Positions 1-35,276 of a DNA stretch of 35,276 nt are shown here, piece after piece. The DNA is taken from positions 1 through 35,276 of IMG/VR virus record IMGVR_UViG_3300021963_000012; one strand, written 5' to 3'. Source of the DNA: a virus. The first letter of the stretch is position 1; every line of letters begins with the position of its first letter. Both the position numbers and the translations under genes were made by a program. The notes beneath the pieces were generated by a model. That model was not told the DNA's origin. It made no database searches and was given only the letters and a program-made list of their open reading frames with translations.

Positions 1-127
1 GTCAGGTCTTCCGCAGGTTGTGTCAACATCTGCTCGATGACTTGCAACCGTTGGGCATAGGTGTCCCGTAATTTGGCGGCTTCCTCTATCTTCGTGCGCT
101 CGGATTCGACTGCCTTGCGCTGTTCGG
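1..127. repeat. Terminal direct repeat, copy 1 (circular-contig overlap)
   Basis: Bases 1-127 (gtcaggtcttccgcaggttg...ccttgcgctgttcgg) recur exactly at 35150-35276. This gives a unit genome of 35149 bp. Confidence 0.95.
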
Positions 128-4497: not shown

Positions 4498-5694
4498 TTA
4501 TACAAGTTCAGCCTTCTGCCCGGTGAAGTCTTCCCACCGCTTTACTATTACATCGCAATACTTGGGGTCTAGTTCCATCAGTCGGGCGGTACGTCCGTTT
4601 TTCTCTGCCGCAATCATTGTAGAGCCAGAGCCGCCAAACAAGTCTAAAACAATGTCCTGTCCCTTAGTGTTGTTTAGCAACTGGTACTCAATCAGTTCCA
4701 CCGGCTTCATAGTGGGGTGGACATCGTTCCGCTTTGGGCGTTTGCACTCAATAATAGTGACTTGCTTGCGGTCTGTAGCCCAAAGGTGACCTGCCCCGTC
4801 TTTCCATCCATATAGGCAAGGCTCGTGCTTCCAATGGTAGTCTTGCCGCCCCATGACCATCGTATCTTTGTTCCAGATGAGGCACTGTCTAACCTTCCAG
4901 TTAGTATCCTTACACGCCCCGCGAAAGTTGTAGCCTTCTGAGTCTGCGTGCCAAATATAGAACACCGCACCTGACTTCATTACCGTATCTGCGGCCACAA
5001 AGGCGTCCCGCAAGAACTGTCTAAACTGGTCGTCCGACATTTCGTCGTTTTTAATTGTTAAGGCTTCTTTAGTCTTGCCCTCATACGCCACGTTATACGG
5101 AGGGTCGGTAATGAGAATGTCGGCCAGTTGCCCGTCCATCAGCTTCTCTACGGCATCTATGCTGGTGGAGTCCCCGCACATTAACCTGTGCCGTCCAAGT
5201 TGGTAGATGTCGCCCGGCTTGGTCTTGGGTTCCTCTGGAACCTCTGGGACTGCGTCTTCGTCTGTCAGACCATCGGTTTCTTTTATCGGGTTTAGCAGGG
5301 CGTTTAGCTCGTCTGCCTCGAACCCTAGCAGGGACAGGTCAAAGTCCTCGCCGTCTAATTCCTGTAACTCCAGCGTTAGCATCTGGTCGTCCCACCCTGC
5401 GTTCAATGCTAGGCGGTTATCCGCTATCACGTAGGCTTTGCGCTGGGTGTCTGATAGGTGAGCCAGCCTTATACACGGGACGGCCTGTAAGCCTAGTTTC
5501 TGCGCGGCCATGACCCTGCCGTGACCGGCAATGATTCCGTTGTCCTCGTCTACTAAGACGGGGTTGTTAAAGCCAAACTCCTTGATGCTTCCCGCTATCT
5601 GCGCTACCTGCGCTTCGCTGTGGGTTCTAGAGTTCTTTGCGTAAGGGATTAGTCCCTTGGTTTCAAGCCATTCTATTGTTTTTGCGCCCTGCAT
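4498..5694 (-). CDS. ParB-like nuclease domain fused to a DNA methyltransferase (N6A/N4C, beta class)
   Basis: N-terminal ParB-like motif PYAKNSRTHSEAQVAQIAGSIKEFGFNNPVLVD..IIAGHGRVMAA. Catalytic motif IV is ITDPPYNV. AdoMet motif I, LDLFGGSGST, lies near the C-terminus. Confidence 0.85.
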   Translation of the reverse strand: MQGAKTIEWLETKGLIPYAKNSRTHSEAQVAQIAGSIKEFGFNNPVLVDEDNGIIAGHGRVMAAQKLGLQAVPCIRLAHLSDTQRKAYVIADNRLALNAGWDDQMLTLELQELDGEDFDLSLLGFEADELNALLNPIKETDGLTDEDAVPEVPEEPKTKPGDIYQLGRHRLMCGDSTSIDAVEKLMDGQLADILITDPPYNVAYEGKTKEALTIKNDEMSDDQFRQFLRDAFVAADTVMKSGAVFYIWHADSEGYNFRGACKDTNWKVRQCLIWNKDTMVMGRQDYHWKHEPCLYGWKDGAGHLWATDRKQVTIIECKRPKRNDVHPTMKPVELIEYQLLNNTKGQDIVLDLFGGSGSTMIAAEKNGRTARLMELDPKYCDVIVKRWEDFTGQKAELV

Positions 5695-5813: not shown

Positions 5814-6341
5814 TCAATCCTTCCTGAGTATGACTTGCAGGGCATCTACCGCACGAGGGGTTCTTATGACGGTCTCTGTGGGAACCTTTTGCTCCCGCAT
5901 CTCGTGACCTAAGTCCGAGAGTTCGAAGCCCATCTGCGTACAGGTGAACTTCTCGTCCCAGTTTAGATACCAATGCCAATCTGTGTAATATAAGAATGAG
6001 TTTTCGTTAAACGCCCGTACATGAGTCGGGTCTTGCCACGCGCCTAGACTTAGGTCGTAGGGCACATGGATGTGCATCTCACCGCCTCGCTTCAACAGGT
6101 CTCGGCAGTTAGTCATTGCGGTTACAAGGTCAGGGATATGCTCCAAGACATCGTTGGCGATTATCTCGGTAAACATTCCCTTCTCGACCGCAAACCGTCC
6201 TAGTCGGGTGTCTATCACCTCGCCCCACGGTACTTTTGTAATGTCTAGCACCCAATCGGGTTTCTTCTCTGGCTGGATGTCGGCGTTTATAGAATCCTTA
6301 CGCCAGTCCTTGCCGCTGCCTAAGTTTAGAGATAAGCCCAT
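5814..6341 (-). CDS. Class I SAM-dependent methyltransferase (Methyltransf_11/23-like), substrate unknown
   Basis: Motif I-like LNLGSGKD, then IIANDVLEHIPD and LLKRGGEMHIHVP. A strong SD (GGAGGACGTAGATG) sits inside the 3' end of the upstream acetyltransferase. Confidence 0.7.
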   Translation of the reverse strand: MGLSLNLGSGKDWRKDSINADIQPEKKPDWVLDITKVPWGEVIDTRLGRFAVEKGMFTEIIANDVLEHIPDLVTAMTNCRDLLKRGGEMHIHVPYDLSLGAWQDPTHVRAFNENSFLYYTDWHWYLNWDEKFTCTQMGFELSDLGHEMREQKVPTETVIRTPRAVDALQVILRKD

Positions 6342-6816
6342 CTACGTCCTCCGAACACAATGCTGGAATAAGCGGCTCTATCTCCGCATCCGTCAAGTCC
6401 CACCAGGCTAATTCTAGCAGGGACGCAATCTGTTCGTCTGTAAACCGCTTCTTTACCACCTTGGCTGGGTTGCCTGCCACGATACAGTAGTCAGGAACAT
6501 CCCTTGTAACCACGGAATTACCCGCTACAACCGCCCCGTTGCCGATGGTGACCCCAGAGTAGATGGTAGCGTTTGCGCCCACCCACACGTCGTTTTTGAT
6601 ATTAACGTCGCCTTTAGTAGCGGGGTGGCCTTCTATTGAAACCTTAAATACGTCTTTAGAGGTATGCCCGAATGGGAAAGTCGTCACCCAGTCGGTGCGG
6701 TGGTTGCCGCCTAGAAATATCTGAACCCCAAAGGCTAGACTGCAAAAGTTGCCGATGGTGTACTTTGCCCCCTCCCCCCATTGGAAAATCTGGGGGTTGC
6801 CGTAACTATGCCTCAC
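6298..6816 (-). CDS. Xenobiotic acetyltransferase (XAT; Vat/CatB-like hexapeptide-repeat acetyltransferase)
   Basis: Motifs IGNFCSLAFGVQIFLGGNHRTDWVTTFPF, KGDVNIKNDVWVGANATIYSGVTIGNGAVVAGNSVVTRDVPDYCIVAGNPAKVVKKRF and LELAWWD match the left-handed beta-helix, catalytic His and C-terminal WW(D/N) signature of Vat/CatB enzymes. The GTG start overlaps the upstream stop as GTGA. Confidence 0.8.
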   Translation of the reverse strand: MRHSYGNPQIFQWGEGAKYTIGNFCSLAFGVQIFLGGNHRTDWVTTFPFGHTSKDVFKVSIEGHPATKGDVNIKNDVWVGANATIYSGVTIGNGAVVAGNSVVTRDVPDYCIVAGNPAKVVKKRFTDEQIASLLELAWWDLTDAEIEPLIPALCSEDVDGLISKLRQRQGLA

Positions 6817-13996: not shown

Positions 13997-14180
13997 CGAC
14001 TTAGCTGTAGAGGCGGGACTGTTTCTCAAGGAGGGGGAGTTGTTGTTTAACTTCCACGAAGACTCTCGTACCCAGTTGCAGAGGTTTGCGGACATAGTGC
14101 GCGAGGAGGAGATGTTGCGGTGCGCTAGGATGGCAGAGGAATGGGGATTTAAGAGCTTGGCTCAGGAGATGAGGGGTTGA
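13986..14180 (+). CDS. Hypothetical small protein
   Basis: 64-aa ORF with a GTG start overlapping the exonuclease stop. No motif. Confidence 0.35.
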   Translation: MTIDDLAVEAGLFLKEGELLFNFHEDSRTQLQRFADIVREEEMLRCARMAEEWGFKSLAQEMRG

Positions 14181-14191
14181 GCCAGCAGGTG

Positions 14192-14326
14192 ATGATAGAA
14201 GCCCTGTATCAGGAGATTATTGGGGTTCTGGGCAAGTTTGACGAGGCACTCCCACTAGCCTCGGTAGTCGGGGTCTTAGAGGTAATCAAGTACCAGCTTT
14301 TAAATAACACGGAGGAAGACGAATGA
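14192..14326 (+). CDS. Hypothetical mini-protein (44 aa), not in the ORF track
   Basis: MIEALYQEIIGVLGKFDEALPLASVVGVLEVIKYQLLNNTEEDE. Its stop overlaps the next ATG as ATGA. Confidence 0.35.
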   Translation: MIEALYQEIIGVLGKFDEALPLASVVGVLEVIKYQLLNNTEEDE

Positions 14327-14436
14327 GAGACGGACTTATATCTGCACACTTCTACGCGCAGGACGCGGCATTTTTCGTGCTATTTATGCTTGGCGTTATT
14401 ATCTTCGCGGGGTGGACAGAGTGGCGGCGTGGTTAA
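14323..14436 (+). CDS. Single-TM mini-protein (37 aa), not in the ORF track
   Basis: MRDGLISAHFYAQDAAFFVLFMLGVIIFAGWTEWRRG has a hydrophobic core flanked by charged residues. Confidence 0.35.
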   Translation: MRDGLISAHFYAQDAAFFVLFMLGVIIFAGWTEWRRG

Positions 14437-14564
14437 TAGCCGGTATCGGTGTTGTATACCTTGTGGTAGCGGTGCAGTTGCTACTAGAAGGTAAGGTGGG
14501 TCTGGGCGTGGCTTTCTTAGGTTATAGCCTTGGCAATGTGGGTCTTTATATAGCAGCCAAATAG
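14421..14564 (+). CDS. Two-TM mini-protein (47 aa), not in the ORF track
   Basis: A GTG-start ORF, VAAWLIAGIGVVYLVVAVQLLLEGKVGLGVAFLGYSLGNVGLYIAAK, overlapping the previous ORF by 16 nt. Confidence 0.3.
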   Translation: MAAWLIAGIGVVYLVVAVQLLLEGKVGLGVAFLGYSLGNVGLYIAAK

Positions 14565-14573
14565 GAGAAGTAA

Positions 14574-14801
14574 ATGGAATACGATAATACGAATAGCGGT
14601 GTGTTGTTTAAGAACGAGTCGGACAACGAGAAAGCCCCAGCGTACAAGGGCAAGTTAAACGTGGACGGGACTGAGTACCAACTAGCCGCGTGGATTAAGA
14701 CCGGCAAGTCTGGGCAGAAGTTTATGAGCCTCAAGGTGGAACTGCCGAAACCAAAGGCAGAGCCTAAGCAACAAGCCTTAGAGGACGACATCCCATTCTG
14801 A
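14574..14801 (+). CDS. Compact single-stranded DNA-binding protein with canonical acidic tip
   Basis: GVLFKNESDNEKAPAYKGKLNVDGTEYQLAAWIKTGKSGQKFMSLKV is OB-like. The C-terminus ...LEDDIPF matches the SSB DDDIPF protein-interaction tail. SD AGGAGAAGTAAATG. Confidence 0.65.
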   Translation: MEYDNTNSGVLFKNESDNEKAPAYKGKLNVDGTEYQLAAWIKTGKSGQKFMSLKVELPKPKAEPKQQALEDDIPF

Positions 14802-14848
14802 CACAGCAACAACTGAAAGCCCTGTTTGATTACAGGCGCGGACGACTT

Positions 14849-15310
14849 GTGTGGAAGCCTCGACCCATTGAGGCTTTCGCCAAGTATTCTGCCTACGTCA
14901 TGTGGAACCGCAGATATGCAAATAGGGTTGCCGGTCACATAACCCCTCGCGGTTATCGCAAAATTGCTATATTCAAGAAGCCTTACTTTGCCCACAGGAT
15001 TGTCTGGGCTTACCACTATGGGTACTGGCCGGAGCAAATTGACCACATAAACTGCAAGTTTGCCGATAACAGGATAGGCAACCTCAGAGAGGCTACGCAG
15101 ACCGAGAACAGGTGGAACTCCAAACGCAGAATAAAAACCAAGTCAAACGTGAAGGGTGTGTATAAGCGGGGGAGAAGACTTTACGAGGCGCACATAATGG
15201 CCAACGGAAAGAGGTATTATTTTGGGAGATTTGTTCGAAAATCTGACGCAGCCAGAGCCGTCACCACCGCAAGAAAAGCGTTGCATAAAACATTTGCTAG
15301 GGCTGGTTAA
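14849..15310 (+). CDS. HNH homing endonuclease with AP2-type DNA-binding domain
   Basis: AHRIVWAYHYGYWPEQIDHINCKFADNRIGNLREATQTENRWN is the HNH motif. KGVYKRGRRLYEAHIMANGKRYYFGRFVRKSDAARAV is AP2-like. The frame is open from 14768, so the true start is probably upstream (CTG 14798). Confidence 0.8.
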   Translation: MWKPRPIEAFAKYSAYVMWNRRYANRVAGHITPRGYRKIAIFKKPYFAHRIVWAYHYGYWPEQIDHINCKFADNRIGNLREATQTENRWNSKRRIKTKSNVKGVYKRGRRLYEAHIMANGKRYYFGRFVRKSDAARAVTTARKALHKTFARAG

Positions 15311-15356
15311 TAGAGGAACCTTTACCGCTACCCCAGAGGAGTTCTATCAAATCGTG

Positions 15357-15539
15357 ATGAGCGAACATGAGGCGAAGATAGAAGGGCTGGCAAGGTATGT
15401 GTTGACGCTCCCAACAAGGGAGGCAAGGAGGAAGTGGCTTGACCAGTTTGAGGCCAAGCACAATTTGACAATAGCCGAGGAACTAAAGGAAAGAATTACT
15501 CAGATTCATAGAGAGCGCGTTCGTGCTTCCGACGCTTAA
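15357..15539 (+). CDS. Hypothetical protein (last rightward gene)
   Basis: MSEHEAKIEGLARYVLTLPTREARRKWLDQFEAKHNLTIAEELKERITQIHRERVRASDA. The track ORF from 15222 overlaps the HNH gene, so ATG 15357 is preferred. Its 3' end overlaps the convergent endolysin by 44 nt. Confidence 0.4.
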   Translation: MSEHEAKIEGLARYVLTLPTREARRKWLDQFEAKHNLTIAEELKERITQIHRERVRASDA

Positions 15540-15975
15540 CTAAGCCAGGCAGCTCTTTCCCACCCGCTTTAGTCCACGCCATGAAGGACTCAGCCGCGCC
15601 CTCAAAATCTCCACGATTGTGCTTCATGCGGATGGTTGACCTTTGGAGGTTGCCAAGCCCGACGTTGAAGGAGAAGGAAACCAAAGCGTCAAAGCGGCCT
15701 TGAGTAAGTCCACTTGGACAGAGGCGCAGAACACCTCGTTCGAATGTAGCCAAGTCTTGAGCCAAGAGAGCATCAACTTCTGCCATGCTAAGAACTCTGT
15801 CCCATCCGTTGGGAATTGGTAGATTTTTGCGGTCATCAAACTTTACCCTTATGTGGTTCTGGTCTATGACGTGCCCTACACCGACAGTCCAAAGCAAGGC
15901 AGGGCAACGGTAAGGTTTTGTCCTTACCCCCTCGTCTTTCTTGATGCCATCTATCGCTTCCTTGCTTACCTTCAC
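15496..15975 (-). CDS. Endolysin, GH24 (T4/lambda-type lysozyme family)
   Basis: IKKDEGVRTKPYRCPALLWTVGVGH contains the catalytic Glu context. FDALVSFSFNVGLGNLQRSTIRMKHNRGDF is also typical of Phage_lysozyme. Confidence 0.85.
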   Translation of the reverse strand: MKVSKEAIDGIKKDEGVRTKPYRCPALLWTVGVGHVIDQNHIRVKFDDRKNLPIPNGWDRVLSMAEVDALLAQDLATFERGVLRLCPSGLTQGRFDALVSFSFNVGLGNLQRSTIRMKHNRGDFEGAAESFMAWTKAGGKELPGLVKRRKHERALYESE

Positions 15976-16475
15976 TTCTTACCCCATTGGCGGCTCCCGA
16001 ACCAAAAACTTACAATCCCAGAGAGCAGGGCCATCTCGTCTTCGGAGAAGATTACGTCCGTGGCGGCGATAAACTGCTCCACGCTCATGTCTCCAAGACC
16101 GCCTTTTAGCAAGAAGTAGGTTAGCCCCATGTTGATTAGCACCAACTCTAAGACGAAGATAAAGGTGACCGCAGGGCGCACTATGCCGTTTAGGTTCACG
16201 ACCCAACCAGAGGCGCGAGCCATGATAGCCTTGTCGTGGTCTAAAGCGGCGCTCTGGCGGTCTGCATCGGTCTGAAGCGCAATCTGGTCAGTCCTAATCT
16301 CCTCGACCCTCTGTTGGGCTAGGAAACCGCGTTCTGCAAGGGCTAACTCGCGCTCGGTCTGCATCTGCGCCAACTTCAACTCTTGTGCCTTGTCAGCCTT
16401 GTCTTGGAAGAAGTTTAGGATTTGCGGTAAGCCAGAGGCTAAGAATCCGACAGCGGAAGAAATAAGGGATAGCAT
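15972..16475 (-). CDS. Holin candidate (GTA-type 3-TM holin-like)
   Basis: Starts at ATG 16475 (MLSLISSAVGFLASGLPQILNFF...). A coiled middle region is followed by hydrophobic segments: RPAVTFIFVLELVLINMGLTYFLL and LLSGIVSFWFG. ATGA-coupled to the endolysin. Confidence 0.5.
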   Translation of the reverse strand: MLSLISSAVGFLASGLPQILNFFQDKADKAQELKLAQMQTERELALAERGFLAQQRVEEIRTDQIALQTDADRQSAALDHDKAIMARASGWVVNLNGIVRPAVTFIFVLELVLINMGLTYFLLKGGLGDMSVEQFIAATDVIFSEDEMALLSGIVSFWFGSRQWGKK

Positions 16476-16924
16476 TACAGGTGTCCTTTGAAGATGTAGT
16501 AAGTGGTGACTATGATTAGCGAGGCTACGAAGCACATAACCTTGAGTTCACGGAGTTTCTTTAGGTCACGCCCCATCTCGTCGCGTCCCTCCTTGACCTC
16601 CTTCATCTGGCGTTCCTTGATGGCTTGGATTTCCTTCCACTCGAACTCTGCCTTTTCCTTTCCGTAGCGTTCTACAAGCTGTTGGAATAGGTCGTCTTCG
16701 GCTTCCTTCACTTCCTTGAGTCTTCTCCACTCTGCGAAGGCTGTGAGGATGGTGGTGTCACCCTTTACCACCCGCTGTTTCTTTTGGAATTGTTGCTTGG
16801 CTTGGAGTTCTGCGACCCCTAATTTCTGTATGTCTTGGACTACTGATTCTATTTCTTTACCTGCCGCAATCGCGCTTTTTATACCCTGCGCTGCACTTTT
16901 TGCCGAGGCTACTAAATCACTCAT
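16475..16924 (-). CDS. Coiled-coil protein with a single C-terminal TM anchor
   Basis: 149 aa, K/E-rich with heptad-like sequence, ending in VMCFVASLIIVTTYYIF. Immediately upstream of the holin. Confidence 0.45.
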   Translation of the reverse strand: MSDLVASAKSAAQGIKSAIAAGKEIESVVQDIQKLGVAELQAKQQFQKKQRVVKGDTTILTAFAEWRRLKEVKEAEDDLFQQLVERYGKEKAEFEWKEIQAIKERQMKEVKEGRDEMGRDLKKLRELKVMCFVASLIIVTTYYIFKGHL

Positions 16925-17863
16925 TTATCCCACTTTCTCTCCTCGAAAGTAAGCCACCCCATTTATTACTTCACATAGTTCAGGAGGTAATAACATACCA
17001 TTCTTAAATGTCAGAACCGCGAATCCTGAACACCAGTTCACGGGGTTTTCTTCTGTGTAAACAAACTGGTCGCCAGTAGGTTCTGCAAGGGTTCCAGTAT
17101 CTATTCCGTATCTGCGCCCATTGTAGTCAACCCAAGGTGTGACCATCAGTTTATGCAGGTGTCCCGTGACGATGCTTCTGCCTGATTTCAGGGCGTTGTT
17201 ATAGGTTGCGTGTTGCCCGTTGTGCCACCGATGCTTGACGACCACCGAGTTATTTATGTCCACACGCCAACCCGTGTGGTAGCCCGGAAAATACGAAAAC
17301 AAGTCCGAGAACTCTACTAAAGCATCCGCATGGGTAGCAATGTAGTTAAAGAGGCGTGTATCGTGGTTCCCGTAAGTCCAGAACTTAGTAGCGTTCTTAG
17401 AAGCGTTTGCAATCTCGGTTAAACGGTCTTGACAGGCTTCTATCTCTTGCTTTGGGGTAGGGGGGTTAGTTCCCATCAGGGCGGCGTGGCGGCTGATTCT
17501 AGCCCCGTCAAAGACATCCCCGTTTAGGATGATGGTCTTGGGCTTAAATTCTGTCAGCAGGGAAACAAACGCCTTGTGTGCTACGGTTTCCTCGTCAGGC
17601 CAGTAATGGCAGTCGGAGGCTATAAAGACGTGACCGTTATCTACGGTGTGGGAGATAACCCTGCGGTTATCTGGGATGTATGTGTTGGCGATGCTGTGCT
17701 GTCTTGCGGCAAAGGAGGGTAGGGATACGTCTTTTATTGCCGCCCGCCTTCGGTAAACCGTACCAACGTCTATGCCTAGAACCTGCGCTACCTTCTGTGG
17801 ACTTCCGTAGGTCTTAAACGCCGCTATTAGTTCCTCGTCCGACACCTTTTTTAGTGCTACCAC
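16925..17863 (-). CDS. HTH domain fused to a calcineurin-like metallophosphoesterase
   Basis: N-terminal SPQKVAQVLGIDVGTVYRRR is the HTH. The MPE motifs are SDCHYW (DxH), NGDVFDG (GDxxD), YGNHD (GNHD) and TGHLH (GHxH). The GTG start has SD GGGAGGAAGC. Confidence 0.75.
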   Translation of the reverse strand: MVALKKVSDEELIAAFKTYGSPQKVAQVLGIDVGTVYRRRAAIKDVSLPSFAARQHSIANTYIPDNRRVISHTVDNGHVFIASDCHYWPDEETVAHKAFVSLLTEFKPKTIILNGDVFDGARISRHAALMGTNPPTPKQEIEACQDRLTEIANASKNATKFWTYGNHDTRLFNYIATHADALVEFSDLFSYFPGYHTGWRVDINNSVVVKHRWHNGQHATYNNALKSGRSIVTGHLHKLMVTPWVDYNGRRYGIDTGTLAEPTGDQFVYTEENPVNWCSGFAVLTFKNGMLLPPELCEVINGVAYFRGEKVG

Positions 17864-18284
17864 GCTTCCTCCCGCTTAGAGTCATTACGTCAATCGGCTC
17901 ATGGGAGGATGTATCGTACAGACACGCCAGCTTTACTGCTTCTGCCGGAGATAGTCCTAAGTGCATGGCAGCGATAGCAAAGTTTGCCCCAGTTCCAATT
18001 GCCCAAAAGTCGTTCTTTATCTTCGCAGGAATGATGGTACTCTCGTAAATCCAAATGCCATCACTTCTGAGTTCGAGAACGGTCACATCCGTATCCGAGT
18101 CTAGGTCAGCCCCAGACTCCAACGAATTGTAGAACTTTAATAGTTTATCCCAATCCCCGCAACCCCCGTAGATGCTGTTCTCGCCCCTACGGATTTTGGT
18201 CACGAGGTAGAAGGAGTCATCACCGCTAACCATTGAGTCTGCGGCCACTTCGCCCGTAGACGCTTTGGCCGCGATGGTGGTCAT
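17814..18284 (-). CDS. HslV/proteasome beta-subunit-like Ntn-hydrolase (peptidase T1-like)
   Basis: N-terminus MTTIAAK parallels HslV MTTIV. Also present are AADSM (Asp17-like), VTKIRR (Lys33-like), GGCGDW and AIGTGANFAIAAM (HslV AIGSGGPYA). Confidence 0.6.
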   Translation of the reverse strand: MTTIAAKASTGEVAADSMVSGDDSFYLVTKIRRGENSIYGGCGDWDKLLKFYNSLESGADLDSDTDVTVLELRSDGIWIYESTIIPAKIKNDFWAIGTGANFAIAAMHLGLSPAEAVKLACLYDTSSHEPIDVMTLSGRKRGSTKKGVGRGTNSGV

Positions 18285-18442
18285 TTAGTCAACAGGTTTA
18301 GCAGTAAAAGGATTATGCAACCAGCAGAGCCGATTAGGATTTGCTCTAGCCGCTTTAGTCGTGCGTTTATCCCAAGATAGCGTTCAGCGCAGACAGCCTC
18401 GTGGGTGTCTAGTTGACCTTGAACTTCGCCAATTGTCGCCAT
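18281..18442 (-). CDS. Tail-anchored mini membrane protein (53 aa), not in the ORF track
   Basis: MATIGEVQGQLDTHEAVCAERYLGINARLKRLEQILIGSAGCIILLLLNLLTK. ATGA-coupled to the HslV-like gene. Confidence 0.45.
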   Translation of the reverse strand: MATIGEVQGQLDTHEAVCAERYLGINARLKRLEQILIGSAGCIILLLLNLLTK

Positions 18443-18443
18443 A

Positions 18444-18656
18444 CTAAGCACCTATCTTGTCCATGATTTCGTCAAAGCTCTCTGCCACCTCCCAAGAATT
18501 GCCGTTCATGCCGTAGCAGACACGAACCTCTGTGCCGTCTTCTTGGGTGTGCTGGAAGATTGACGCAATCAGGTCTGTGTTGATAATCAGACCCTCACCG
18601 ATGCGCCCCTTGGCGGCGTTAGTTAGTTTGATAAGTTTCACGCTATCTCCACCCAT
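18444..18656 (-). CDS. Hypothetical small protein
   Basis: 70-aa ORF. The internal GTG 18641 has SD GGTGGAGA and a GTGA overlap with the upstream stop, so it may be the real start. Confidence 0.4.
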   Translation of the reverse strand: MGGDSVKLIKLTNAAKGRIGEGLIINTDLIASIFQHTQEDGTEVRVCYGMNGNSWEVAESFDEIMDKIGA

Positions 18657-19015
18657 GAGGTTGTAGCCTCATCCCATGAATACCGCTTTGGGTTCTCAGG
18701 AGTGCCGACATCCGTTGGGTACGGTACTGGCGAATCCCACAGGCAAGTGGTTTCGTTTAGCAACCAAGACGCATAGGGTTTGGGAGGAATGAACGCATCA
18801 CGCCCCTCATCGTAGGTGTAGCCTATTCCCGCATAGTTCTTACGAAACGGGGTTCCACCTAGTGCGTGTACACCACCGTGGGTGTTATACGAAGTCTGTT
18901 TGTAGACATCGCCTGTACGGGCAGAGAGTTCTGCCTCTTTGCCGTTGTCCTCGTCACGACCAACCGTGACAAAAATAACAACATTGTTTTCATCTAACTT
19001 GGCAAAGTGCGCCAT
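18638..19015 (-). CDS. Conserved phage protein of unknown function
   Basis: The pattern MAHFAKLDENNVV...YAGIGYTYDEGRDAFIPPKPYASWLLNETTCLWDSPVPYP...YSWDEATTSW recurs in marine podo- and cyanophages, by recollection. Confidence 0.5.
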   Translation of the reverse strand: MAHFAKLDENNVVIFVTVGRDEDNGKEAELSARTGDVYKQTSYNTHGGVHALGGTPFRKNYAGIGYTYDEGRDAFIPPKPYASWLLNETTCLWDSPVPYPTDVGTPENPKRYSWDEATTSWVEIA

Positions 19016-19630
19016 CTAAATCTCCTTTGTAGATTCAAGTTTAAGGCCAGTCAAGTCTATTTCGTCACCGACTAAACCAACCGGAAAGGTATTAAAAGAA
19101 AGGCTAATTCTTGTGTCCTCACCTTTAACAGTTTCGACCATGTGGGTCAGGCTTGATGGAAACAAAATTAAATCCCCTGTTCCAACCTCAAACCACCAAC
19201 TATCAGAGTTCCAAACATTCCACTCACTTGGAGGTAGTTTGATTTGCTGAAACCCATCACGGTAAAAGTGAATCTTGTCTGTCTCACGATTTGCCTGTGG
19301 GTAAAAAACCCCGGATATAAACGAATTAGGGTGATTATGCTTGTGATGAAAACCGCCTGGTTTCGTATAGTTAATCCAAGACTGTGTAATTCGTAAATTT
19401 ACATTGTGTTTTGGACTATGAACTTTCTTAAAATAATCTGAAACGCCAGACTCAATAAAGTCTCTTAATTTTGTCATTTCAAAATTACGAAGAACTGTAT
19501 TGTCAATAGATGTTTCATTCCCAGCATTAGGTCTGGTTTCTTGATTATTTATAAACAAAAGTTCTCCCTCAGTCAGTTTGCGTTCTAACTTATAAATTGC
19601 TACTGGCTGAGGGAAAAGGCTATGCATCAC
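19016..19630 (-). CDS. 2OG-Fe(II) oxygenase superfamily protein (TIGR02466/PF13759-like)
   Basis: FHHKHNHPNSFISGVFYP, then LILFPSSLTHMVE. ATGA overlap with the upstream Gly-rich gene. Confidence 0.65.
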   Translation of the reverse strand: MMHSLFPQPVAIYKLERKLTEGELLFINNQETRPNAGNETSIDNTVLRNFEMTKLRDFIESGVSDYFKKVHSPKHNVNLRITQSWINYTKPGGFHHKHNHPNSFISGVFYPQANRETDKIHFYRDGFQQIKLPPSEWNVWNSDSWWFEVGTGDLILFPSSLTHMVETVKGEDTRISLSFNTFPVGLVGDEIDLTGLKLESTKEI

Positions 19631-22257
19631 GAAAATGTAACTGTTTCAGAAGTTGTTGATGTAGCAGTCACGGTATAAATCTTAAATCCACCAGAAGTTG
19701 ATAGCGAGGATGTGACACCGGCTGAGAAGGTAGCAGTATAACCGTCAGGAATCTTAATAATAACTATTCCTGACCCTCCAGCGCCACCAGAGCCGCTGTA
19801 ATCAGTACCACCGCCACCACCACCACCCGTGTTAGCGGTTCCTGCTGTAGCCGGAATAGCAGATGGCGCACCGCCTGTAATCCTTCCTCCGGTTCCACCA
19901 CCACCAGAACCTGCCGCCCCACTTGTCGTGGTTCCCCAACCGCCACCACCACCACCTCTAGTTACAGACGAACCAGTAATGGATGAGGCTGTTCCAGCGC
20001 CACCGTTGCCGCCTGTGGAGTTTGAAGCGTTGCCCCCAACGCCACCAGCGCCACCACCGCCGCCACCAGCAGAAACTTGACCACCACTATTTCCTCGACC
20101 AGTTCCTCCATTGTTTCCTTGAGAAGGACTTGTAGAAGGAGTGTTACCAGAGCCGCCACCTCCGGGTGACCACGGAGCCGCACCATTTCCACCAGCCTCT
20201 CCACCCCCTGAGCCGCCGTTTTTGCCTTTGGTTTCGTAACTAGCACCACCGCCACCGCCTGTTGACGTGATAGTAGAGAAAACAGAATTTGAACCATTGC
20301 CTCCGGCACTATATGGCCCAGCAGTTCCACCGCCGCCTACGGTTACCGTGTAAGCAGTTCCTAAAATAACCGATGTAGTTGAAGATGTGCGATAACCGCC
20401 AGCGCCACCTCCACCACCGTGGTCTGCGCCACCACCACCGCCGCCTGCAATAACCAACAGGTCAGTAACAGTAAACGCTCTTGCAAACGTCACAGTCTCA
20501 CTTGTCGTGCTAGTCGCAGTCACAGAGTAGATGTTGAATCCACCAGAAGTAGACAGAGATGAAGTTACGCCACCAGAGAATGTCGCAGTTACGTTGTCAG
20601 GTACTTTGATAATGACAATGCCAGAGCCGCCGTTACCGCCAGTTTGGGTTGTTTCGTGCGAACCGCCGCCACCACCACCACCTGTGTTGGATGTGCCGTT
20701 AGAACCGGACGCATCAATGTTTGCGCCATTACCACCGCCGCCTGACCCACCCGTGCCACCTGTTTGAGCGCCACCAGTACCGTTATTCCATGCGCCACCA
20801 CCACCGCCGCCTGCTCTGGTAACACTAGAGCCTGTGATTGATGAGGCCGTACCTGCGCCACCGTTACCACCACCGGAAGCATCGTTAGCACTTTGACCTA
20901 CAGCGCCAGCGCCGCCGCCGCCGCCACCACCACGGCCAACCGCAGTTCCATTACCACCAGAGCCGCCGTTGTTACCTTGGCTTGGTGATGTGCTTGGCGT
21001 GTTTCCTGAACCACCAGCGCCACCTGTAACTGATGAACCAGAGCCACCGCCACCAGAGCCACCGCTTAATCCAGCAACAGCTTCGCTACTTGCACCGCCA
21101 CCACCACCAGCAGATGTGATTGTGTTAAAAACAGAGTTTGAGCCAGTAGAGCCGTTTGTTGTGCCGTTGCTTGTAGATGTTCCGCTACCACCAGCACCAA
21201 CCGTAACCGTATATGCAACACCAAACGTAACGGATTGAGTTGTGCTTGAACGATAACCACCCGCACCGCCTCCTCCGCCACCTGCTGCGCCAGCGCCACC
21301 CGAACCACCACCAGCAATCACTAGCACCTCAGTAATTGGCGCGCCAGCAAAGAACGTCACAGTCTCGCTTGTAGTCGAAGTCGCCGTGACGGAATAGATG
21401 TTGTAGCCAGCAACCGCAGTAGATAAAGTTGAAGTTACACCAGATGAGAATGAGGCATAGTGCGTAGATGGAATTTTGATGATAACGACACCGGAGCCGC
21501 CTGCGCCGCCACTTGCTAAACTGTTTCCACCAGAGCCGCCTGCGCCGCCGCCAGTATTTGCTGAACCATTTGAACCGTTGGCGTTTGTTGCTCCATTGCC
21601 ACCACCGCCTGAACCGCCTGTTCCCGCAGTTCCAAAAGCGCCGCCACCTCCACCGCCAGCACGGGTTACAGATGAGCCTGTTATAGATGAAGCCGTACCA
21701 GCACCGCCGTTGCCACCGATAGATGAACCGCTACCAGCGCCACTTGCGCCACCTTGTCCAGCAGTTCCTACCGCAGTTGCGCCACCGCCGCCGCCTCCGG
21801 AATACCAATACTCATCTTTTCCAGCGCCGCCATTACTACCCTGTGATGGAGATGTTGATGGGGTGTTGCCAGAACCACCTGCTTTGTTTCCAGTACCACC
21901 TCCACCGCCGCCTCCACCACCAGAACCACCATTATTTCCGGTAGTTGCAAATCCACCAGAACCACCGCCACCACCGCCTGTTGAAGTGGTTGAGCCAAGT
22001 ACAGAATTTGAACCAGCGCCACCAAATCCACTTGTTGTTCCGCTGTTCGGGCCAGCAGTTCCACCAGCACCAACCGTAACCGTATAAGCAGTACCAACGG
22101 CTAGACTTTGAGAAGTAAGTTCACGATAACCGCCTGCTCCACCCCCGCCACCAGCGTAATTACCCCCACCTCCAGCACCACCTGCTACAACAAGGTAGTC
22201 AGCAAGGATAGTCGGCGCACCCTGCCCAGCAAGAAGAATCTGAAAGATGCCCGTCAT
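19627..22257 (-). CDS. Glycine-rich triple-module virion protein (fibre or spike candidate)
   Basis: 876 aa built from three modules of about 290 aa (aa ~11-302, 303-591, 592-876). Each carries GGYR, YTVTVG(A/G)GG, SGNTPSTSPSQG.NGG, GGNGGAGTASSITGSSVTR.GGGGG and GGSG(I/V)VIIK(I/V)P, and ends in Y(S/T)VTATSTTSETVTF. Confidence 0.7.
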   Translation of the reverse strand: MTGIFQILLAGQGAPTILADYLVVAGGAGGGGNYAGGGGGAGGYRELTSQSLAVGTAYTVTVGAGGTAGPNSGTTSGFGGAGSNSVLGSTTSTGGGGGGSGGFATTGNNGGSGGGGGGGGGTGNKAGGSGNTPSTSPSQGSNGGAGKDEYWYSGGGGGGATAVGTAGQGGASGAGSGSSIGGNGGAGTASSITGSSVTRAGGGGGGAFGTAGTGGSGGGGNGATNANGSNGSANTGGGAGGSGGNSLASGGAGGSGVVIIKIPSTHYASFSSGVTSTLSTAVAGYNIYSVTATSTTSETVTFFAGAPITEVLVIAGGGSGGAGAAGGGGGGAGGYRSSTTQSVTFGVAYTVTVGAGGSGTSTSNGTTNGSTGSNSVFNTITSAGGGGGASSEAVAGLSGGSGGGGSGSSVTGGAGGSGNTPSTSPSQGNNGGSGGNGTAVGRGGGGGGGAGAVGQSANDASGGGNGGAGTASSITGSSVTRAGGGGGGAWNNGTGGAQTGGTGGSGGGGNGANIDASGSNGTSNTGGGGGGGSHETTQTGGNGGSGIVIIKVPDNVTATFSGGVTSSLSTSGGFNIYSVTATSTTSETVTFARAFTVTDLLVIAGGGGGGADHGGGGGAGGYRTSSTTSVILGTAYTVTVGGGGTAGPYSAGGNGSNSVFSTITSTGGGGGASYETKGKNGGSGGGEAGGNGAAPWSPGGGGSGNTPSTSPSQGNNGGTGRGNSGGQVSAGGGGGGAGGVGGNASNSTGGNGGAGTASSITGSSVTRGGGGGGWGTTTSGAAGSGGGGTGGRITGGAPSAIPATAGTANTGGGGGGGTDYSGSGGAGGSGIVIIKIPDGYTATFSAGVTSSLSTSGGFKIYTVTATSTTSETVTFS

Positions 22258-23148
22258 TTATGACACGTTCCCTGTGATAACGCAGACGGTACTAGAGATA
22301 AATAGGATTGTGCAGACACCTCTAGTCGCAAGGGTAACGCTTGCCTTATCCGAATCTGTACCCGCAATATAGGCGGTTGTGATTGTGCAAGTAATGGTAA
22401 TCCCCGCAGAGGTGTTGTTAAAGATAGATATTACATCACCTTCGGCAAAAGTGGCATCAGGAATCGTTATAGACCCGCCAGAGCCTACTTGGACATACTC
22501 GCCCACGTCAGTCGTGGCAAGCGTATAAGAACCTGTCTTGGTTCCCACGGCAGGGATGTTCCTGTACCCCAAGGTCGAGGTGTCAGGGGGGAGGGTATAG
22601 GTATTCGTAGAAGCTGCGGCAGGGGCGTTTAGGGTAGCCGCACCGCTAGAAGAACCCGCTAGTTTCAGGCTTCCAGAGTTAAATGTGCTTGTCCCAGAGA
22701 ACGTGTTTGTACCGCTAGAGTTGATACCGCCAGAGATGATGGCAGAGCCGGAGATGGTATTCGTGCCGGAGAAGATGTTGCCACCAGAAAAGGTGTTAGT
22801 AGTCCCTGACGAGTTTATATTCCCAGAGATAATCGCCGACCCTGAAATCGTGTTCGTGCCGGACAGGATATTCCCGCCAGAGAATGTATTGGTCGTGCCA
22901 GAGGAGTTGATGTTGCCCGAGATAACAGCCGCCCCAGAGATGGTGTTCGTCCCACTCATCAGGGTTCCACCGGCAAAGGTAAACGCGTCCCCAGAAGCCC
23001 CTGTCTGGAACTCCTTTAGGTGAACCATAAGCTCACGGATGGCGTTGTTGATGCTACTTGGGGGACACCCCTCATCGATGTTAATACCTTCTATGTCGGT
23101 ATTTGACGAGTTTGTCGTTGAGTATTCTGAAATCTTGGTCTTGGGCAT
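22258..23148 (-). CDS. Tail fibre protein
   Basis: The N-terminal anchor motif TKISEYSTTNSSNTDIEGINIDEGCPPSSINNAIRELMVHLKEF is conserved. It is followed by three repeats of about 31 aa (GGN(I/L)xSGTNTISGSAIISGNINSSGTTNTFS). Confidence 0.7.
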   Translation of the reverse strand: MPKTKISEYSTTNSSNTDIEGINIDEGCPPSSINNAIRELMVHLKEFQTGASGDAFTFAGGTLMSGTNTISGAAVISGNINSSGTTNTFSGGNILSGTNTISGSAIISGNINSSGTTNTFSGGNIFSGTNTISGSAIISGGINSSGTNTFSGTSTFNSGSLKLAGSSSGAATLNAPAAASTNTYTLPPDTSTLGYRNIPAVGTKTGSYTLATTDVGEYVQVGSGGSITIPDATFAEGDVISIFNNTSAGITITCTITTAYIAGTDSDKASVTLATRGVCTILFISSTVCVITGNVS

Positions 23149-23151
23149 TTC

Positions 23152-25149
23152 TTAATCTCCTAAAAGTCCGGCTGCTGTTCCACCACCTAAACCACCTACT
23201 GCGCCTGTGGCGGCGGCTTGTTTACGCAATAAATCATCTAATAGTTGGAGCCGTGAAAGTGCTTCAATTTGTTTCCCAGCGTCCGTTGAAAACAATGTTG
23301 GCGCAAGGGCTTCTGCCGTTGGTTGTCCTGGCCCGGTCATAGTTCTTAGGGCGTATTGGCGAAGCCCGCCAAGCCCCTGTTGGGCAACCATTGGTATCAG
23401 TTCTTCTGAGCCTTCAAACTCTCGTTGGGCAAGTGTTCGCGGGTGGGTTTGTGAACCACCCGCCAACTTTACGTCCGTCTGGCGAATGATTTTTTCGCGA
23501 GCAAGTTGACCAGATAAATCGTTAAATGTGTCCTTGCCAAGGAATACTGCTAGTTGGTCGCGCTTCTCTGGCGAACCCCAAACCTTACGCAACACATCTG
23601 CGCCATCTGCGCCTTTGTTGATGTTGGTTCGTATAGAGTCATAAACGCCAATCTTAAACCCTTCTTTTTCGGCATCTGACAGTCCACTAAATATCCGTTG
23701 CAATTGCCTAGCGTCCATCGTTGCAAATTTCTTACCGTCTTCAATGGCATCCAAAACCTCTGTTGCACCGGCGTACACGCCTCTGGCTTGCTTATAGGAG
23801 GCTGGGCCAACTTCGTCAACGATGTCCACAAACTCCTTGCGGCGTTCTTTTAGCTTTCCAAGTTCTGCCTTGCCAATCCCGCTTCCAGGCTGTTTGCCTG
23901 TAAATAGAACATCGTCTAACCCACGCTTAATGTAATCTAGAGTTTGCAAGTCAAACCCGCCAACCTTCTCAATGTCCGAGGCTTTTTCAGGCAAAGGAAT
24001 ACGGTCTAATGCGGCAATTCGACGGGCGCGGGCATAGGCATCCTGAAACTGCGGAATGTCCATTAGTTCTGTAATTCGCTCATCCCGAATCACCCCACCC
24101 TCGGCATAGGCTTTTTGGTACAAAGGTTTTGCCAACTGGTCACGGCTTTTAATAAGGCTATCTGCTAAGTCCATTGCATCTGCGTTGACTTGGAAAGCCT
24201 GACGGAAGTCTTGGGTAATCCGTTGTCCAGCACCGGCCATACGTTCTTCGGTCAACTCTCTAGCAACCTGAGAAGCACCAGGATATTGCGCCACAACATC
24301 TGCTAGGCGGCGTGTATTTTCACCGCCTAACTCAATGATTGTTTCTGGCTTGTAGTTTGACTGCTTGATTTGGCGTAGCCGGTCTATTGCGTCGGCAGGA
24401 GACACCCCGTCCCTTTGCAAGGCTTGTAGCAATTTCTGGTCGGCACGAGTGGCAAAGTCTCCACCCAACCCAACGGCTCTTTTGCCCGCTTCTAGGGCTT
24501 GTTGAATTCCGGGTACACGAGAGGCTACCTTTGCGGCAGTAGTCCCACCAAGGCCAAATGCAGCCCCTATGGGGGCGGCTTCTAGCGCACCTGTCATACG
24601 AAAGTCAGGCATGGCTTGTCCCGCGCCAGTTATTCCAGCCGAACCTGCGCCAATTGCGGTTGCTCCACCCAACGCTGTAGTTGTACGTCCTGCTGGGGTT
24701 GATACGGCTTGAGCAACTCGCGGAGCCACCGTAGCCAATCGTTCTGCACCACGCACCGCACCCAAACCACCTAACGCCATGTACGGCAACGAACCGGCAA
24801 TCTCCATCCCAATTGCGGTTCCAGGAGACTCTTGCTCAAACTCTTGTTTAGCGAGATTGATGGCGTTTAGGTTCTGCTCGTATGTACCTTTGCCAAGCAA
24901 AGATTTTATGCCAGCCTCTGCCTCGTCAGAAAAGCCAAATGTCAACCCTTGTAACGCAGATTTTACTGGGCCAAAGTCAGCAATTACACCCTGAGATTGA
25001 TTGTACTTACCAACGGTTTCCGCAAATGTCTTTGGGGTAAAACCTTCGCTTTTAAGATAAACGGTAGTTTCTTTCGCCGTAGCCCCACCGTTAATGAGGC
25101 GTTCCATATTTCTAAGGGTACGCTCAATGCGTTCGGTGCTTTTGGCCAT
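23152..25149 (-). CDS. Internal virion / ejection protein (large)
   Basis: 665 aa, A/G/Q-rich, with a C-terminal Gly-rich hydrophobic tail (AAATGAVGGLGGGTAAGLLGD). It lies in the block between hub and fibres. Confidence 0.5.
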   Translation of the reverse strand: MAKSTERIERTLRNMERLINGGATAKETTVYLKSEGFTPKTFAETVGKYNQSQGVIADFGPVKSALQGLTFGFSDEAEAGIKSLLGKGTYEQNLNAINLAKQEFEQESPGTAIGMEIAGSLPYMALGGLGAVRGAERLATVAPRVAQAVSTPAGRTTTALGGATAIGAGSAGITGAGQAMPDFRMTGALEAAPIGAAFGLGGTTAAKVASRVPGIQQALEAGKRAVGLGGDFATRADQKLLQALQRDGVSPADAIDRLRQIKQSNYKPETIIELGGENTRRLADVVAQYPGASQVARELTEERMAGAGQRITQDFRQAFQVNADAMDLADSLIKSRDQLAKPLYQKAYAEGGVIRDERITELMDIPQFQDAYARARRIAALDRIPLPEKASDIEKVGGFDLQTLDYIKRGLDDVLFTGKQPGSGIGKAELGKLKERRKEFVDIVDEVGPASYKQARGVYAGATEVLDAIEDGKKFATMDARQLQRIFSGLSDAEKEGFKIGVYDSIRTNINKGADGADVLRKVWGSPEKRDQLAVFLGKDTFNDLSGQLAREKIIRQTDVKLAGGSQTHPRTLAQREFEGSEELIPMVAQQGLGGLRQYALRTMTGPGQPTAEALAPTLFSTDAGKQIEALSRLQLLDDLLRKQAAATGAVGGLGGGTAAGLLGD

Positions 25150-34635: not shown

Positions 34636-35276
34636 TTAGAGGAATCGTTCGAGTAAAGCCGCCGCGTCTCGCGGGCGACCAGTTTGTTTGAGTTGCTTGG
34701 TCAATTTCTTGACCGCCTCTCCGTCCTTATCAAGGCGAGGAGAGCCGACCCCAGGTGCTAATGACTTGGGAGCCTCTGCCACTCTTTTGGAGATGGCAGG
34801 TTTTGACTTCTGCAATTTTTCGTATTGCATAGCCCGATACAGAGTCAGGACGGCGCGGTGGTCGTACACCTGCGACAACTCTTGGTCTGTCCACCCAACC
34901 GATTTGGCGTAATCTTTTATCTCCTTGCGGATAACCTCGCCCTTTACCTCATCTCCGAAGTCAGGGATGGCAGAACGTAGACGCTCGGCTTCCTGTTGGA
35001 TATGAGATTTAAGCCTCTCCTGATGTTCGGCGGCTTGCTTGGCTTGGAGTGATTCGCGTTCGGCGCGGACAGCTTGTAGCTGCTTTTCGCGTTCCATGTT
35101 CTCTGCCATCTTGACCGCGTACCCGATGGGGTCTTGGTCTTTTAAGGCAGTCAGGTCTTCCGCAGGTTGTGTCAACATCTGCTCGATGACTTGCAACCGT
35201 TGGGCATAGGTGTCCCGTAATTTGGCGGCTTCCTCTATCTTCGTGCGCTCGGATTCGACTGCCTTGCGCTGTTCGG
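34636..35276 (-). CDS. Scaffolding protein, C-terminal part (the ORF runs off the window end and continues at 431..1 via the circular junction)
   Basis: No stop between 35196 and 35276 in this frame. The track's TTG start at 35196 is internal. See feature 1..431. Confidence 0.6.
   Translation of the reverse strand, partial: EQRKAVESERTKIEEAAKLRDTYAQRLQVIEQMLTQPAEDLTALKDQDPIGYAVKMAENMEREKQLQAVRAERESLQAKQAAEHQERLKSHIQQEAERLRSAIPDFGDEVKGEVIRKEIKDYAKSVGWTDQELSQVYDHRAVLTLYRAMQYEKLQKSKPAISKRVAEAPKSLAPGVGSPRLDKDGEAVKKLTKQLKQTGRPRDAAALLERFL
35150..35276. repeat. Terminal direct repeat, copy 2 (circular-contig overlap)
   Basis: Identical to bases 1-127. It lies inside a coding region, so it is not an intergenic cos or DTR-like site. 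Confidence 0.95.

Follow-up and report, generated by a model that had tools for sequence, protein, structure and literature searches.

A proteasome-like hydrolase of the phage PPH family and the recurrence of a metallophosphoesterase gene beside it

The DNA analysed here, positions 1 to 35,276 of IMG/VR virus record IMGVR_UViG_3300021963_000012, is referred to below as the window. On its minus strand it carries a gene of 156 codons for a hydrolase of the proteasome/HslV type, predicted to use an N-terminal nucleophile (Ntn), which we assign to the phage protein family PPH. The first 127 nucleotides of the window (1-127) are identical to the last 127 (35150-35276), which makes the window a complete assembly of 35,149 bp, circular or terminally redundant. 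A preliminary description of the locus had proposed an Ntn protease similar to HslV and to proteasome beta subunits, encoded without an ATPase partner, joined with a small membrane peptide and a phosphoesterase in a compact three-gene unit, and had regarded it as the best candidate in the window for an undescribed module for host manipulation. The open reading frame (ORF), its MTTIAAK start and the motifs quoted in that description are present and align as claimed; the strand, which it did not give, is minus. The features of the locus are collected in Table 1.

Table 1. Positions of the PPH gene, its conserved codons and the neighbouring genes in the window
Feature	Position	Strand	Remarks
PPH-family proteasome/HslV-like Ntn hydrolase gene	17814..18284	-	156 aa, starts MTTIAAKASTGEVAADSM (MTTIAAK)
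Thr2 codon, predicted N-terminal nucleophile after Met1 removal	18279..18281	-	Thr 115/117, Ser 2/117 in the family alignment; Thr 81/81 lineage sequences
Asp16 codon (proteasome Asp17 equivalent)	18237..18239	-	invariant 117/117
Lys30 codon (proteasome Lys33 equivalent)	18195..18197	-	invariant 117/117
Gly43 codon (oxyanion-hole Gly47 equivalent)	18156..18158	-	invariant 117/117
Acidic loop LESGADLDSDTD, residues 55-66	18087..18122	-	net charge -5; at the helix H2/pore-loop position
Gly97-Thr98-Gly99 codons (HslV GSG / proteasome Ser129 motif equivalent)	17988..17996	-	both Gly invariant
Basic low-confidence C-terminal tail, residues 137-156	17817..17876	-	lineage-specific, variable among relatives
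Helix-turn-helix (HTH) + calcineurin-like metallophosphoesterase (MPE), 312 aa	16925..17863	-	PF00149 1.3e-6; phrog_221 4.8e-26
53-aa peptide from its ATG, C-terminal transmembrane segment	18281..18442	-	residues 35-52, Kyte-Doolittle 2.39
149-aa coiled-coil protein, C-terminal hydrophobic segment	16475..16924	-	Kyte-Doolittle 1.89 at residue 127; syntenic in relatives
167-aa membrane protein, holin-like candidate	15972..16475	-	phrog_6637 (function unknown)
Endolysin (T4-type lysozyme)	15496..15975	-	PF00959 2.5e-37; phrog_7 endolysin 9.7e-48

The hydrolase, its family and its predicted fold

The PPH gene is real and is not a chance ORF, because it is under purifying selection (median dN/dS of 0.13 against 51 distinct relatives) and its catalytic positions do not vary among related loci. 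In 80 such loci from IMG/VR the ORF is intact at 75-98% protein identity, and T2, D16, K30, G43 and G97-T98-G99 are invariant. The protein matches PHROG 1040, 'peptidase HslV family', over residues 1-143 (E=7.9e-28). At E<=1 no HslV or proteasome model of Pfam or NCBIfam was matched, and the only match to these collections was a spurious one to DUF7322. A HMMER search over 1.84 billion cluster representatives (E<=1e-3) found 1730 related representative clusters; the full-length sequences among the best 150 matches listed are mostly of 130-165 aa and start MTT[IV], and most members of the family have 135-150 aa. One protein of the representative library, P0126 (127 aa), is an apparent chimera with an N-terminus like the HTH start of the phosphoesterase and with residues 62-125 matching PPH residues 82-147 at 80% identity; either rearrangement or an artefact of assembly or gene calling, in a relative, could account for it.

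The family alignment, and the profile made from it, comprise 117 representatives. Compared with the PDB, this profile found the Betaproteobacteria proteasome homologue BPH (3e-12), HslV of several species (1.8e-10 to 1e-7) and 20S beta subunits (about 1e-6). Its alignment with Thermotoga maritima HslV runs from end to end and places T2 on the mature Thr1, AADS on GGDG (Asp17), TKIRR on RKVRK (Lys33) and AIGTGA on AIGSGG, so that the nucleophile and its Asp and Lys partners named in the preliminary description are found where it had put them. Position 98 is Ser in 91 of the 117 representatives and Thr in 19, and D124 is Asp in 103. There is no propeptide, the protein starting directly with MTT.

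With the 117-sequence alignment as input, the AlphaFold2 (AF2) model has a pLDDT of 93.5 and a pTM of 0.84. It contains 11 strands, arranged as six strands, one helix (45-57), four strands, two helices and the last strand. The 10-residue block-mean pLDDT drops to 68-74 over approximately residues 141-156, in the C-terminal tail. Foldseek returned HslV, BPH and 20S beta subunits as the top PDB matches (E about 2e-9 to 1e-7, TMq <=0.73, probability 1.00), among them HslV 6kr1 with E=1.9e-9 and a TM-score of 0.72, and the same fold was found in 47 phage proteins of BFVD. In the structural alignments only 15-21% of residues are identical to HslV. The predicted fold is thus a proteasome-like Ntn beta-sandwich with its catalytic constellation intact. 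PHROG 1040, the profile, the model and Foldseek agree on this point, and the original assignment to the HslV/proteasome-beta type, for which comparison with HslV, proteasome beta subunits and BPH by profile search and structure prediction had been recommended, stands because the modelled fold is Ntn-type and Thr and Lys are conserved.

The single helix of the model at 45-57 is found between strands 37-43 and 67-73, which is exactly one helix fewer than in HslV, and in the profile alignment about 17 extra residues belong to the H2 region of HslV alone. The window protein has an acidic loop at this position. Its LDSD.D core is invariant in the lineage of the window, and across the family the loop that replaces H2 has 12-24 residues and is mostly acidic. 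Helices H3 and H4, which mediate ring-ring contacts in the proteasome family (PMC8665760), are retained in the model. It has been established for HslV that Arg86, Arg89 and Lys90 on H2 protrude at the pore entrance, that their mutation severely reduces activity, and that binding of HslU remodels the region of H2 and this pore cluster (PMC5777263). Docking of PPH to a host HslU is on the model unlikely, because H2 and the Arg86/Arg89/Lys90 surface are gone and an acidic loop is present instead. BPH also has an acidic pore loop; pull-downs showed no association of it with HslU, and towards standard substrates it was inert (PMC5777263).

The family to which the window protein belongs had already been defined. 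Fuchs, Alva and Lupas (2021) described PPH as proteins of about 140 residues, radiating from the BPH cluster and lacking H2 as RPC does, found in Caudovirales and prophages; no AAA+ partner was found for any of the new homologues (PMC8665760). A phage genome paper of 2020 had also remarked on HslV without HslU (PMC7823757). We found no experimental study of the PPH family in the literature. Our assignment was set by the features in the published definition, whose reference sequence is WP_042125023.1. The window protein shares with PPH the proteasome-like S1-S11 beta-sandwich core, the equivalents of Thr1, Asp17, Lys33 and Gly47, the absence of a propeptide and a core of about 140 residues (structured residues 1-136, then the 20-aa low-confidence tail). 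It is modelled with H1, H3 and H4 and without H2, and it is encoded in a tailed-phage genome that has no AAA+ partner. It has no extra C-terminal domain, the feature that splits PPH from RPC, the last strand being followed only by a disordered tail of 20 residues. What its lineage adds is this tail, which is basic and overlaps the next gene; it also has Thr rather than Ser in the GSG motif and an especially acidic H2-replacement loop (-5). Every feature of PPH that was tested was found, and hundreds of phage records carry annotations of the HslV-family or Ntn kind. Judged by its sequence and modelled structure, the window protein is therefore a member of the already described PPH family, PHROG 1040, and the term 'undescribed' used for it earlier has to be given up.

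Comparison with the other classes is consistent with this placement. HslV (ClpQ, family T1B, the core of HslVU) has the same fold, the same catalytic residues and an MTT start that exposes Thr1 after removal of Met, and it aligns from end to end (profile E=1.8e-10). The window protein has about 25-30 residues fewer, neither H2 nor the basic pore cluster, and no adjacent hslU gene, and it goes unmatched by the HslV models of Pfam and NCBIfam. BPH (PDB 5ovs, 5ovt and 5ovu) is the top PDB match in sequence, likewise has no partner unfoldase and shows an acidic segment at the pore-loop position. However BPH is a cellular protein of about 190-200 aa with four helices and a long pore loop that forms heptameric double rings, whereas the window protein is shorter and without H2, and among the BPH traits tested only loop acidity is common to both. 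RPC also lacks H2 but has an extra C-terminal domain where the window protein has a short disordered tail. The group-I homologue AAH of Fuchs et al. (2021) is phage-borne too but keeps both helix pairs, because only PPH/RPC and connectase are named as lacking flanking helices (PMC8665760).

Distribution among phages and pairing with metallophosphoesterase genes

Homologues of PPH are present in at least 555 phage records, whose carriers include Salmonella Jersey-like phages, Kagunavirus, E. coli phi92/phAPEC8-like phages, Vibrio phages, Caulobacter jumbo phages, Xylella phage Paz, Proteus phages and phiM5. Their annotation varies between 'peptidase HslV family', 'NTN-hydrolase', 'proteasome beta subunit' and 'ATP-dependent protease'. 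In bacterial genomes, searched with a narrower alignment, only 9 weak partial matches were found (26-38% identity, query residues about 50-145). Escherichia phage phAPEC8_ev052 (L103) has a 'peptidase of HslV family' of 230 aa with a C-terminal extension, which may be an RPC-like form, and a Ser/Thr protein phosphatase gene approximately 3 kb downstream of it.

Gene context was surveyed in annotated phages, in metagenomic contigs and in 77 PPH loci that were retrieved with a degenerate DNA pattern for MTTIA...MAADS, giving 93 loci in total, or 60 lineages at 60% PPH identity; both the search pattern and IMG/VR bias this sample, in which many contigs are truncated. PPH was always found among late genes. 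It stands next to holin, endolysin or spanin genes in Jerseyvirus SE2, phiSD1, Sciku, Xylella phage Paz, Proteus phage RS51pmB and the contigs L008, L009, L110 and L113, and next to terminase, portal, head-morphogenesis or adaptor genes in phiM5, CcrSC, BUCT006, K43b and several IMG/VR lineages. In temperate-phage contigs (L008, L009, L111 and L112) PPH is followed not by an MPE but by a DnaQ-like exonuclease (phrog_403, PF13482), with an integrase near. HNH endonucleases lie close to PPH in DSL-LC04, RCIP0033 and K43b.

The commonest immediate neighbour of PPH in this survey is a gene for an MPE. Such genes, which were sought with local HMMs seeded from the neighbour clusters, occur within 3.5 kb of PPH in 17 of the 60 lineages, always on the same strand, and in 12 lineages they are directly adjacent to it and often overlap it, the window being such a case. 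They belong to phrog_221 (12 lineages), phrog_704, phrog_7339 ('DNA repair exonuclease') and phrog_1745. All 25 MPE matches fell in the 499.5 kb that lie within 3.5 kb of PPH and none in the 350 kb of farther flank; counted by lineage, a split of this kind has a probability of about 1e-4 under uniform placement. An MPE that follows a PPH only 32% identical to that of the window is itself 41% identical, over its full length, to the HTH-MPE of the window (E=5e-74), which means that the pair has moved together across distant phages. The phosphoesterase part of the proposed three-gene unit thus recurs in distant lineages.

In the window the MPE gene starts with GTG, with GGGAGGAAGC just before it, and overlaps the 3' end of the PPH gene by 50 nt; the last 47 nt of the PPH coding sequence (50 nt with the stop codon), which encode its tail, are shared with the start of the phosphoesterase gene. 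None of the 80 lineage loci has lost this overlap, while the fibre genes and the upstream accessory genes vary. All five metallophosphoesterase motifs are present in the protein. It has no sequence match in the PDB, and its AF2 model (pLDDT 68) gave weak fold matches to SbcD/Mre11 (TM-score about 0.35).

It is conceivable, and we offer it tentatively, that PPH and a calcineurin-type MPE (mostly of phrog_221, and also the SbcD/Mre11-like phrog_704 and phrog_7339) make up a recurrent, translationally coupled two-gene module of tailed phages, in which a mini-proteasome and a phosphoesterase or nuclease would act on a common target late in infection. The pairing is a new lead because no informative gene context was reported when PPH was defined (PMC8665760). 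Its caveats include the lack of a nearby MPE, in the available sequence, in 43 of the 60 PPH lineages and the great size of the phrog_221-like MPE family, which has more than 5700 proteins and mostly occurs without PPH. Approached from the MPE, the association is weak: in a single look-up, of six related T7-like contigs (L195-L200), the MPE belongs to a DNA-metabolism module without PPH. In these contigs the phrog_221-like MPE lies between endonuclease I and a dGTP-diphosphohydrolase-like gene, a placement that hints at a nucleic-acid or nucleotide substrate.

The wider locus and the genome of the window

The 53-aa peptide upstream of PPH was the third member of the unit as first proposed. Its TGA stop overlaps the PPH ATG by 4 nt (ATGA), an overlap that is there in the sequence and had been taken to couple the two genes. 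However any gene that starts with Met-Thr (ATG ACN) necessarily begins with ATGA, and as a sign of special coupling the overlap was therefore rejected. The peptide was detected in 52 of the 80 loci of the window's phage lineage. Across the family a transmembrane-like ORF lies directly upstream of PPH in 8 of 34 lineages against a background of 15%, and a small tail-anchored peptide was rejected as a family-wide part of the module. When scanned as a 56-aa ORF with a GTG start (18281-18451), the peptide matched 'GTA head formation protein, RCAP_rcc01685 family' of NCBIfam weakly and below the threshold, scoring 19.4 bits (E=6.6e-4) where the cutoff is 50.

Downstream of the MPE follow the 149-aa coiled-coil protein, which received no PHROG or Pfam assignment, the 167-aa membrane protein and the endolysin. 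The order PPH, MPE, 149-aa protein, 167-aa protein, endolysin is kept in every one of the 80 related loci where the contig is long enough, and among the relatives the gene for the 167-aa protein always lies between those for the 149-aa protein and the endolysin. From the fibre gene to the endolysin gene the genes abut or overlap, and it is in this run, unbroken and all on one strand, that PPH lies, with the tail-fibre genes on one side and the lysis genes on the other. A scan for promoter and terminator signals over 14000-23500 gave no excess over shuffled sequence. The gene order suggests that PPH is co-transcribed with the late and lysis genes, since there is no such signal in this interval and the genes abut or overlap.

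The genome is that of a podophage, with genes for portal, TerL, capsid, an SU10-type adaptor and a GP4-type fibre protein recognised by Pfam and PHROGs. Nucleotide searches of the window against sequenced phages gave no match, and among cultured phages Phage DSL-LC04 comes nearest, with 56% protein identity. On the minus strand the order is TerS, TerL, portal, scaffold, major capsid, SU10-type adaptor, GP4-type fibre protein and a glycine-rich fibre, followed by a 2OG-Fe(II) oxygenase, small ORFs, PPH, the phosphoesterase, the two membrane/coiled-coil proteins and the T4-type endolysin. No AAA+ domain was found by Pfam or PHROGs among approximately 46 ORFs of this complete genome that were scanned. 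A regular expression for the Walker-A motif, applied to ORFs of at least 80 aa, matched only once, in a 111-aa TerS-like ORF, and disclosed no plausible ATPase. The absence of an AAA+ partner from the genome, as previously proposed, is in this way borne out. With PADLOC, neither PPH nor the MPE nor any of their neighbours matched a defence system.

Several other genes deserve mention in their own right. The glycine-rich protein at the tail-fibre position (19627-22257, minus strand) has 876 aa and three repeats of about 290 aa (PF21722 Gly_rich_2 in three stretches; phrog_2295). The gene at this position is the most variable one among the relatives, which have Laminin_G_3, SPRY or DUF7483 fibres instead. 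Between the fibre gene and the PPH block lies the 2OG-Fe(II) oxygenase (19016-19630, minus strand; PF13759 9.4e-21), assigned to phrog_81 of the category 'auxiliary metabolic gene/host takeover' and detected in 11 of the 80 related loci at 66-85% identity. Just upstream of TerS/TerL a ParB-like nuclease domain is fused to a DNA methyltransferase (4498-5694, minus strand; phrog_498 9.6e-181, ParB-like phrog_620). In the early/accessory region there are neighbouring genes for a methyltransferase-like protein (weak matches to Methyltransf_23/11) and a hexapeptide-repeat transferase (PF00132 3.3e-9), at 5814-6816 on the minus strand.

Possible action of PPH and its alternatives

The conserved residues, the predicted fold and the gene order together make it probable that PPH is a threonine hydrolase that works alone and independently of an ATPase, is produced along with the late genes and is unlikely to dock to HslU. 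Host methionine aminopeptidase would remove Met1 and expose the Thr nucleophile as in HslV; by the rule of N-terminal excision, Met is removed when Thr occupies position 2. The protein may then assemble through the retained H3 and H4, allowing rings to stack, and the enzyme produced with the late genes would carry out threonine hydrolysis without an ATPase. Its substrate might be a peptide or a protein, and it may work on this jointly with the neighbouring phosphoesterase. Some points weigh against this view. BPH, the closest relative of PPH with a solved structure, was inert on standard substrates (PMC5777263), so that protease activity of PPH is only predicted, from its conserved residues. 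The window protein has Thr and not the usual Ser at position 98. Loss of H2 might be compensated in some other way, and the docking of HslU is for that reason disfavoured rather than excluded.

A different enzymatic role has been considered, in which PPH would be no general protease but a specific amide-bond enzyme, either a connectase-like ligase/transpeptidase or a processing enzyme, working with the adjacent MPE or nuclease on one defined substrate. The proteasome-like fold does include a specific protein ligase, connectase (PMC8665760), and the inertness of BPH (PMC5777263) would fit with such a role. So would the adjacency of PPH to MPE-family genes, often in overlapping frames, and the DnaQ-like exonucleases and HNH endonucleases that are its other neighbours. 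However PPH is without the helical insertion between S3 and S4 that confers connectase specificity (PMC8665760), most of its lineages lack a nearby MPE just as most of the MPE family lacks PPH, and adjacency is no proof of shared function. We therefore think this role unlikely, if the least so of the alternatives to a stand-alone hydrolase.

The position of PPH in some phages raises the question of whether it could be a head-maturation enzyme, removing the scaffold or otherwise serving the prohead in phages that have no canonical protease. The head module of the window (TerS, TerL, portal, scaffold and major capsid) has no recognisable prohead protease. In phiM5 PPH lies between TerL and portal, in BUCT006 and K43b it adjoins head-morphogenesis genes, in 4 lineages it is next to a head-tail adaptor gene, and TerL is within 3.5 kb of it in 10 of the 60 lineages. 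On the other hand, in the window genome and its relatives PPH is far from the head module, coming after the tail-fibre genes and just before those for lysis, and holin, endolysin or spanin genes are its neighbours in many phages. The phiM5 record tags portal, scaffold and capsid as 'detected in phage particle proteome' and leaves the peptidase untagged. Scaffold-containing phages, moreover, often need no protease. The known prohead proteases (HK97-type S78, ClpP-type S14 and T4 gp21 S77) have a herpesvirus-assemblin or ClpP fold and a gene between portal and capsid, whereas the fold of the window protein is proteasome-like and its gene lies between the tail-fibre and lysis genes. A function in head maturation is, on this evidence, improbable.

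We give equally little credence to the hijacking of host HslU suggested in the preliminary description, for which PPH would have to dock to HslU, use it as an unfoldase in place of host HslV and so divert ATP-dependent degradation. In favour of the suggestion, PPH is a true homologue of HslV, the phage itself lacks an ATPase, and hslVU is present in most Proteobacteria, to which the host probably belongs. It is opposed by the loss of H2 and of its Arg86/Arg89/Lys90 cluster in favour of an acidic loop, and by the absence of any match to the HslV and proteasome models of Pfam and NCBIfam. The family profile is also nearer to BPH, which did not associate with HslU in pull-downs (PMC5777263), than to HslV, and Fuchs et al. 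found no co-occurring AAA+ protein for these homologues (PMC8665760). Hijacking of HslU and the further suggestion of a dominant-negative subunit or cap are the least supported mechanisms. That PPH poisons host HslV rings in the latter way is hardly credible in spite of its homology to HslV and its retention of the ring-contact helices H3 and H4, because a poison needs no nucleophile, whereas the conservation of Thr, Asp, Lys and Gly is nearly perfect over the 117 divergent members and points to catalysis, because an identity to HslV as low as that in the structural alignments makes co-assembly unlikely, and because the phages that carry the family infect very different hosts.

Among proteins of the proteasome family PPH alone is primarily viral. 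The main value of the present analysis is in the correct classification of the window protein and in one testable lead, the pairing with an MPE, which is also its sole result beyond the literature. If true, the PPH-MPE module would be the first functional handle on the PPH family, and since several culturable model phages carry the PPH gene, genetics would be feasible. The function of a phage mini-proteasome free of an unfoldase would inform our view of how self-compartmentalising proteases work without ATPases, and it also bears on the manipulation of the host late in infection.

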